NCBI RefSeq assembly: GCF_013167455.1
Contig: NZ_CP038328.1
Strand: one strand, 5' to 3'
DNA from: Escherichia coli O157:H7
GTDB taxonomy: Bacteria > Pseudomonadota > Gammaproteobacteria > Enterobacterales > Enterobacteriaceae
Length of the DNA stretch: 64,000 bases
Part shown: piece by piece, positions 8,211 to 9,003 of the stretch
Layout: each line of letters begins with the position of its first letter
Position numbering within the stretch: position 1 is the stretch's first letter
Position numbers and translations under genes: made by a program
Notes under the pieces: model-generated
Databases searched by the model: none
Seen by the model: the letters and a program-made list of their open reading frames with translations, nothing else
Told to the model about the DNA's origin: nothing

Positions 8211-9003
8211 TGCTGTAGTCCTCTTCTTCATTTTTACTGGCAACGGGCTGCGGTTGCGCTTGCTGCCGGGATTTCGCATTGAAAAACTCATACACCGCAA
8301 AGCCTGCGCCCAGTACGGCAACCGGCAACAGGTTGCTGACCTGGATGTAGCAAACAAACAGGAAGCCGGCGATCAGGTAAGGGATATATTGTGCTTTGAA
8401 CATCACGCGCAGCAGCAAGCCAAAACCAACGGCAGGCAGAATACCGCCAGCCACTTCAAAGCCGTGGGTCAGCCAAGCGGGCATCGCTTTCACCAGCGCC
8501 TGCATCGCCCCTTGTGCCAGGTAAGTACAGAGGAAAGCAATCACCGCATACGCTGAAGCGACGATGAGCATCGTTGTCCAGTTAAGTCGGGAAAACGCTG
8601 CCGTATCCGCCTCTTTCGCGCATTTATCGGCTTTGGTCATAAATAATGAGAAAGCAGAATAGAAGAACAGAATGACGTACTGCATTAACAAACTAAACGG
8701 CAGGCCAAGACCAATTGCCGTTTTGGCATCAACGCCCGTAGACCATGCAATGACGGTGGTCATCAGACCCGCCATAATCGGGTTGGGCGGCTGAACACCA
8801 CCTGCAGGGGTTAATCCGGCGAAAGCCAACTCTGTCAGACCACCGGTAATTAAGCCAGTCTGAATATCACCGAGAATAGCGCCAGTTAGGGTACAAACGA
8901 TTATCGGGCGGAATAAAAATAAGGCTTCCAGCCAAAAATCAATCCCCAGAACGAAAACTAACGCCGCCAGGGATAATCCCTAAAGTAGGGTTATTTCATG
9001 CAT
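8200..9003 (-). pseudogene. agaC: PTS GalN-specific IIC component AgaC with an in-frame amber codon at codon 8 (TAG at 8980-8982)
   Basis: ATG at 9003 with SD gaggt upstream reads MHEITLL-TAG-GLSLAALVFVLGIDFW... in the same frame as the 209-codon ORF 8200-8829. Confidence 0.75.

Follow-up and report, generated by a model that had tools for sequence, protein, structure and literature searches.

Two CAG-to-TAG changes in the amino-sugar genes of Escherichia coli O157:H7, at codon 8 of agaC and codon 72 of agaI, were described in strains EDL933 and Sakai by Hu et al. 2013 (BMC Microbiol 13:94; PMC3668189), who credit Mukherjee et al. 2008 (J Bacteriol 190:1710) for both ambers. According to Hu et al., EDL933 is Gam-negative and Aga-positive (it is a non-user of galactosamine and a user of N-acetylgalactosamine), and its failure to use galactosamine is explained by the agaC amber, which affects EIIC(Gam) (PMC3668189). 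EDL933 became Gam-positive with a plasmid carrying agaBCD of E. coli C, a result cited there as unpublished data; this rescue used agaBCD jointly and not agaC alone (PMC3668189). The agaI gene is dispensable for the use of both amino sugars, and suppression of its amber was raised by the same authors as a formal possibility (PMC3668189). A further point mutation in the same regulon, agaF Gly91Ser, alters amino-sugar use in O157:H7 strains from the 2006 spinach outbreak (Mukherjee et al. 2008, cited in PMC3668189); as reported by Hu et al., it abolishes Aga use via the shared IIA protein.

The regulon is also naturally inactivated in K-12, and there too agaBCD is left unusable. In that strain, a 2.3-kb deletion removes the 3' part of agaW, agaE, agaF and the 5' part of agaA, and the aga/gam cluster is cryptic; agaB, agaC and agaD are annotated as "cryptic". 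In K-12 both agaC, with CAG at codon 8, and agaI are intact, but IIA (agaF) is missing, and the strain is Aga-negative and Gam-negative. O157:H7, which has kept agaW, agaE, agaF and agaA, differs from K-12 in being Aga-positive but is likewise Gam-negative. At the protein level, the IIC component of the E. coli mannose PTS, ManY (structures 6K1H and 7DYR), belongs to the same PF03609 fold family as AgaC; it is a paralogue that differs from AgaC in its sugar specificity and is intact.

Here we analysed a 64,000-nucleotide stretch of an E. coli O157:H7 genome (hereafter the window). Its agaC allele agrees with the published O157:H7 Gln8amber allele in gene, codon, base change, companion amber in agaI and background, and is without any sequence difference from the EDL933/Sakai allele. 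The codon-8 amber of agaC is already published and annotated, and its detection here is a rediscovery. What the present analysis adds is a census of the allele, its placement in the stepwise series from O55:H7 to O157:H7, and the masking of the lesion by PGAP-based RefSeq annotation.

The agaC reading frame is broken at codon 8

The galactosamine PTS genes follow the operon order IIB-IIC-IID (agaB-agaC-agaD), all on the minus strand, within the aga/gam cluster. The features of agaC and its operon neighbours are:

9042..9518, minus strand: agaB, galactosamine PTS IIB, intact, upstream of agaC in the same operon
9012..9015, minus strand: GAGG Shine-Dalgarno of the authentic agaC start (ATG 9003..9001), 8 nt upstream of the ATG
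8200..9003, minus strand: agaC pseudogene, galactosamine PTS enzyme IIC, 267 codons (by translation)
8980..8982, minus strand: TAG amber, agaC codon 8, ancestral CAG (Gln8)
8968..8970, minus strand: CTG, agaC codon 12, NCBI PGAP start of the 256-aa CDS WP_071525013.1
8827..8829, minus strand: TTG, agaC codon 59, first canonical in-frame start past the amber, opening a 209-aa remnant ORF
7419..8210, minus strand: agaD, galactosamine PTS IID, ORF intact, 263 codons
6663..7418, minus strand: agaI pseudogene with an in-frame TAG at codon 72 (7205..7203; by translation)

The 5' end of agaC, read on the minus strand from 9003 to 8980, is ATG CAT GAA ATA ACC CTA CTT TAG, exactly as the sequence-only reading had given it, though that reading left the strand unsaid. 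Translation of 9003..8200 yields MHEITLL*GLSLAAL..., with codon 8 as the sole internal stop, followed by 259 sense codons and a normal stop; the earlier figure of about 259 in-frame codons beyond the TAG was therefore right. The changed base is window position 8982, as had also been proposed (T on the coding strand, A on the plus strand), and the lesion consists of one C-to-T transition, CAG to TAG. The rest of the frame is open and the relatives have CAG, in keeping with the earlier description of a clean single-codon lesion in the galactosamine PTS IIC gene.

With Q8 restored, AgaC scored 231.4 bits against Pfam PF03609 (EII-Sor; cut-off 26.3) over residues 7-237. It aligns to ManY residues 3 to 258 (E = 9e-25), its Q8 stands opposite ManY Q7, and an N-terminal EIT(L/T)LQ motif is common to the two proteins. 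Since the EII-Sor/ManY homology begins at residues 3-7, the normal AgaC N-terminus lies upstream of the stop. Annotated agaC was present at 98-100% nucleotide identity in 5,247 genomes, and in the CAG-carrying genomes it is annotated from the upstream ATG. The GAGG at this ATG forms the strongest anti-Shine-Dalgarno duplex among the candidate starts (−6.9 kcal/mol), and both ATG and Shine-Dalgarno were invariant in 7/7 strains in an alignment of the start region (window, Sakai, PV15-279, O157:H7 LSU-61, sorbitol-fermenting (SF) O157 493/89, O55:H7 RM12579 and K-12). Downstream of the amber, there is no in-frame ATG or GTG before codon 59, where the first canonical start is a TTG; no alternative ATG lies nearby, as the sequence-only reading had stated, and a conserved downstream start with its own ribosome binding site was not found, the relatives having CAG and an invariant upstream ATG and Shine-Dalgarno. 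A normal start downstream of the TAG was rejected on the basis of this invariance and of a domain homology that starts upstream of the stop. Programmed read-through, recoding or a genuine downstream start were likewise rejected, as the TAG is not conserved among relatives (CAG in 3,529 genomes). An uninterrupted frame from the conserved agaC start is absent. Because the TAG at codon 8 breaks this frame, we conclude that agaC is here a pseudogene of the PF03609 family and not a functional member.

The rest of the aga/gam cluster and its flanks

Twelve structural aga genes were translated, of which 10 are intact and 2 are broken (agaC at codon 8 and agaI at codon 72). Besides agaB and the agaD ORF, the intact genes of the cluster, including the regulatory gene, are:

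9685..10545, minus strand: kbaY
10558..11712, minus strand: agaS
12063..13196, minus strand: agaA
13193..13627, minus strand: agaF, with Gly91
13645..14523, minus strand: agaE
14513..15292, minus strand: agaW
15303..15776, minus strand: agaV
15799..17079, minus strand: kbaZ
17328..18137, plus strand: agaR, repressor of the aga/gam regulon, 269 aa

Translation and comparison with K-12 showed that, in contrast to that strain, the window has agaW, agaE, agaF and agaA at full length, just as had been claimed. At its codon 91, agaF has the wild-type glycine and not the serine that Hu et al. cite for the spinach-outbreak strains. The earlier statement that the agaC amber lies in an otherwise complete cluster proved half correct: the amber is there, but the cluster is not otherwise complete, agaI having its own amber at 7205..7203.

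Several other irregularities were seen in and around the cluster. The Sakai record NC_002695.2 flags agaD (ECs_5753; positions 9647..10438 of our locus L007) as a pseudogene, but its ORF is open and identical to that of the window; in the agaD and agaI entries of this record, the products noted also seem not to fit the gene names. In PV15-279, agaA (positions 4909..6038 of our locus L001) is frameshifted by a 4-bp deletion (window 12635..12639) and annotated as nagA, whereas agaA of the window is intact. In the flank of the cluster, an IS629/IS1203 element (IS3 family; orfA 108 aa, orfB 296 aa; window ~716..2022) interrupts a fimbrial adhesin gene:

2347..~1256, minus strand: yraK, interrupted

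The IS629::yraK junction is common to 187 complete genomes, Sakai and EDL933 included. PV15-279 has an IS copy in yraJ instead, in the opposite orientation.

Distribution and origin of the agaC amber

The census covered 5,426 complete E. coli genomes and used SNP-centred 45-mers, which seed a megablast match only when the central base matches. The TAG version was found in 296/5,426 genomes; as these are exact 45-mer matches, TAG carriers with another SNP nearby would be missed. The CAG version was present in 3,529 genomes. We inspected the organism names of about 60 of the 296 TAG carriers, and all were of O157:H7 type, one beta-glucuronidase-positive strain included. This agrees with a lineage-wide lesion, a point that the sequence-only reading had proposed for checking. 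A sequencing error at 8982 was rejected, because 296 complete genomes, each assembled independently, have the identical allele.

Across the 17,856 nt compared, the window and O157:H7 Sakai NC_002695.2 are 100% identical, and a 951-nt query spanning agaC had 100% identity to O157:H7 genomes. When the TAG of this 951-nt haplotype was reverted to CAG, it matched 18 genomes at 100%, among them eight O55:H7 genomes, 493/89 and LSU-61. In the start-region alignment, codon 8 is TAG in the window, Sakai and PV15-279 and CAG in LSU-61, 493/89, RM12579 and K-12, so that the sense codon expected elsewhere, CAG, is indeed what these relatives have; the codon-8 SNP is the only variable column among the O157 and O55 sequences. 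Over 16 kb from aga to yra, the window differs from SF O157 493/89 at four sites, one of which is the agaC C-to-T change.

Two synonymous changes were noted in the same comparisons. A kbaY CTG-to-TTG change at codon 172 (window 10032) is present in the window and PV15-279 and absent from O55:H7, 493/89 and LSU-61, so that in this set of genomes it goes together with the agaC amber. A yraK GAG-to-GAA change at codon 23 (window 2280) is shared by the window and Sakai and not by PV15-279, O55:H7, 493/89 or LSU-61.

PV15-279, which carries the agaC TAG, is a beta-glucuronidase-positive O157:H7 strain (PMC6256406). Because LSU-61 and 493/89 have CAG and PV15-279 has TAG, we place the mutation on the stem of non-sorbitol-fermenting O157:H7. 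From the distribution of the alleles, it appears to have arisen once, after the branching of LSU-61 and SF O157:NM and before the split into beta-glucuronidase-positive and -negative strains. A literature search for an earlier timing of this mutation relative to O55:H7, SF O157 and LSU-61 returned nothing relevant, the matches to "agaC" being mostly primer strings. The agaC TAG can serve as a clean SNP marker for the stem of non-sorbitol-fermenting O157:H7.

The amber in agaI has a wider distribution. Its 45-mer occurs in 307 genomes versus 296 for the agaC amber, and PGAP notes agaI with an "internal stop" in O55:H7, SF O157 493/89 and LSU-61. Judged by the strains that carry it, the agaI amber is older than the agaC amber and was inherited from O55:H7. 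The agaI gene of O55:H7 RM12579 has an additional 1-bp insertion at codon 49 besides the amber.

The RefSeq gene model hides the lesion

In TAG-carrying O157:H7 RefSeq genomes, PGAP annotates agaC as an "intact" gene of 256 aa without a pseudogene flag; in the PV15-279 locus (L001), for example, this model covers positions 9131..9901. The CTG at codon 12 from which the model starts is preceded at 7 nt by a weak Shine-Dalgarno-like TAGGGA (−5.6 kcal/mol versus −6.9 kcal/mol at the true start). By contrast, the Sakai reference record has agaC as the pseudogene ECs_5782 at exactly matching coordinates. In our view, the CTG-start model is an artefact of annotation. Any count of pseudogenes or metabolic reconstruction based on PGAP/RefSeq would credit O157:H7, wrongly, with a complete Gam PTS.

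Could a functional AgaC still be made?

If the PGAP model were taken at face value, translation would start or re-start at CTG codon 12 and give a working 256-aa AgaC that lacks the 11 N-terminal residues. This reading, which we consider very improbable, can point to the unflagged PGAP call of exactly this CDS (WP_071525013.1), to the TAGGGA before the CTG, and to the induction of agaC mRNA that RNA-seq detected in EDL933 in bovine rectal content (PMC6199705). However, such a start would cost the protein 11 residues of its first hydrophobic segment, inside the conserved EII-Sor/ManY homology, and is at odds with the upstream ATG annotated in CAG genomes and the Shine-Dalgarno invariant in 7 strains. 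Moreover, E. coli ribosomes initiate very poorly at CUG. A working protein also conflicts with the Gam-negative phenotype of EDL933 and its rescue by agaBCD of E. coli C (PMC3668189), and with the curated Sakai record, which calls the gene a pseudogene.

Full-length AgaC would result if the TAG were a sequencing or assembly error, or if it were read through, either naturally or by a suppressor tRNA. With a suppressor of the supE type, which inserts Gln, the product would be identical to wild-type AgaC. Nevertheless, we regard this possibility as negligible: the same base stands in 296 independent complete genomes, Sakai, EDL933 and EC4115 among them, the 64-kb window contains no tRNA genes of any kind, which speaks against a nearby suppressor, and any read-through is insufficient for growth, as the published phenotype is Gam-negative (PMC3668189). 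We infer that useful re-initiation or read-through is absent in agaC, although a trace of N-terminally truncated AgaC from CTG codon 12 may be made, judging from the start-site motifs.

Proposed explanation of the phenotype

The allele in the window is almost certainly the known agaC(Gln8amber) null allele of non-sorbitol-fermenting O157:H7. A ribosome starting at the authentic ATG would terminate and release the peptide after 7 residues, leaving the cell without enzyme IIC(Gam). In PTS of the mannose family, IIC and IID jointly form the membrane translocator. Since both are needed for it, loss of AgaC would abolish galactosamine uptake and phosphorylation despite intact AgaB, AgaD, AgaF, AgaS and KbaY/KbaZ. 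N-Acetylgalactosamine enters via the separate AgaVWE system, and the IIA protein AgaF is shared between the two. AgaVWE and AgaF are intact and AgaC is lost, hence the published Aga-positive, Gam-negative phenotype. Indeed, the GalN-negative, GalNAc-positive phenotype predicted by the sequence-only reading is that published for EDL933 (PMC3668189).

The agaC amber arose on a background that already bore the older agaI codon-72 amber from O55:H7. With agaBCD intact and agaI dispensable, O55:H7 and SF O157 493/89 are predicted to be Gam-positive, and LSU-61 (from its agaB deletion), PV15-279 and typical O157:H7 strains Gam-negative. Polarity of the agaC amber on agaD is possible from the gene arrangement, because the agaD ATG overlaps the 3' end of agaC by 11 nt. 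The one hint of it comes from the EDL933 transcriptome in bovine rectal content, where induction falls from a log2FC of ~3 for agaB to ~2.1 for agaC, and agaD is absent from the main text, including the table of differential expression (PMC6199705).

Was the loss of galactosamine use selected?

The amber may have become fixed by neutral decay or hitch-hiking, or because the loss of galactosamine uptake conferred an advantage in the niche of O157:H7. We consider an advantage unlikely. In its favour, the sister strain LSU-61 suffered a hit of its own on the Gam PTS: it has CAG at agaC codon 8 and a 332-bp deletion that takes agaB codons 27-137 (positions 8917..9000 of our locus L005, corresponding to window 9439..9108). 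Furthermore, the agaC amber is among only four differences from SF O157 493/89 in 16 kb, and all exact-match TAG carriers (296/296) keep the TAG, with no reversion visible among them. On the other hand, relaxed selection accounts just as well for a pair of hits within a small clade, one SNP can become fixed along a long clonal stem without selection, and the neighbours are decaying too: agaI and yraK, as well as agaA and yraJ in individual strains. The fuller scenario, in which the O157 clade lost the Gam PTS in two independent events (agaC Gln8amber and the LSU-61 agaB deletion), both of them after the agaI amber, and this loss was selected, is slightly less likely again. If it were true, loss of the Gam PTS would have been selected during the emergence of O157:H7 and would not be simple decay.

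The biological importance of the lesion is small: it explains a known trait, typical O157:H7 being a non-user of galactosamine and a user of N-acetylgalactosamine.
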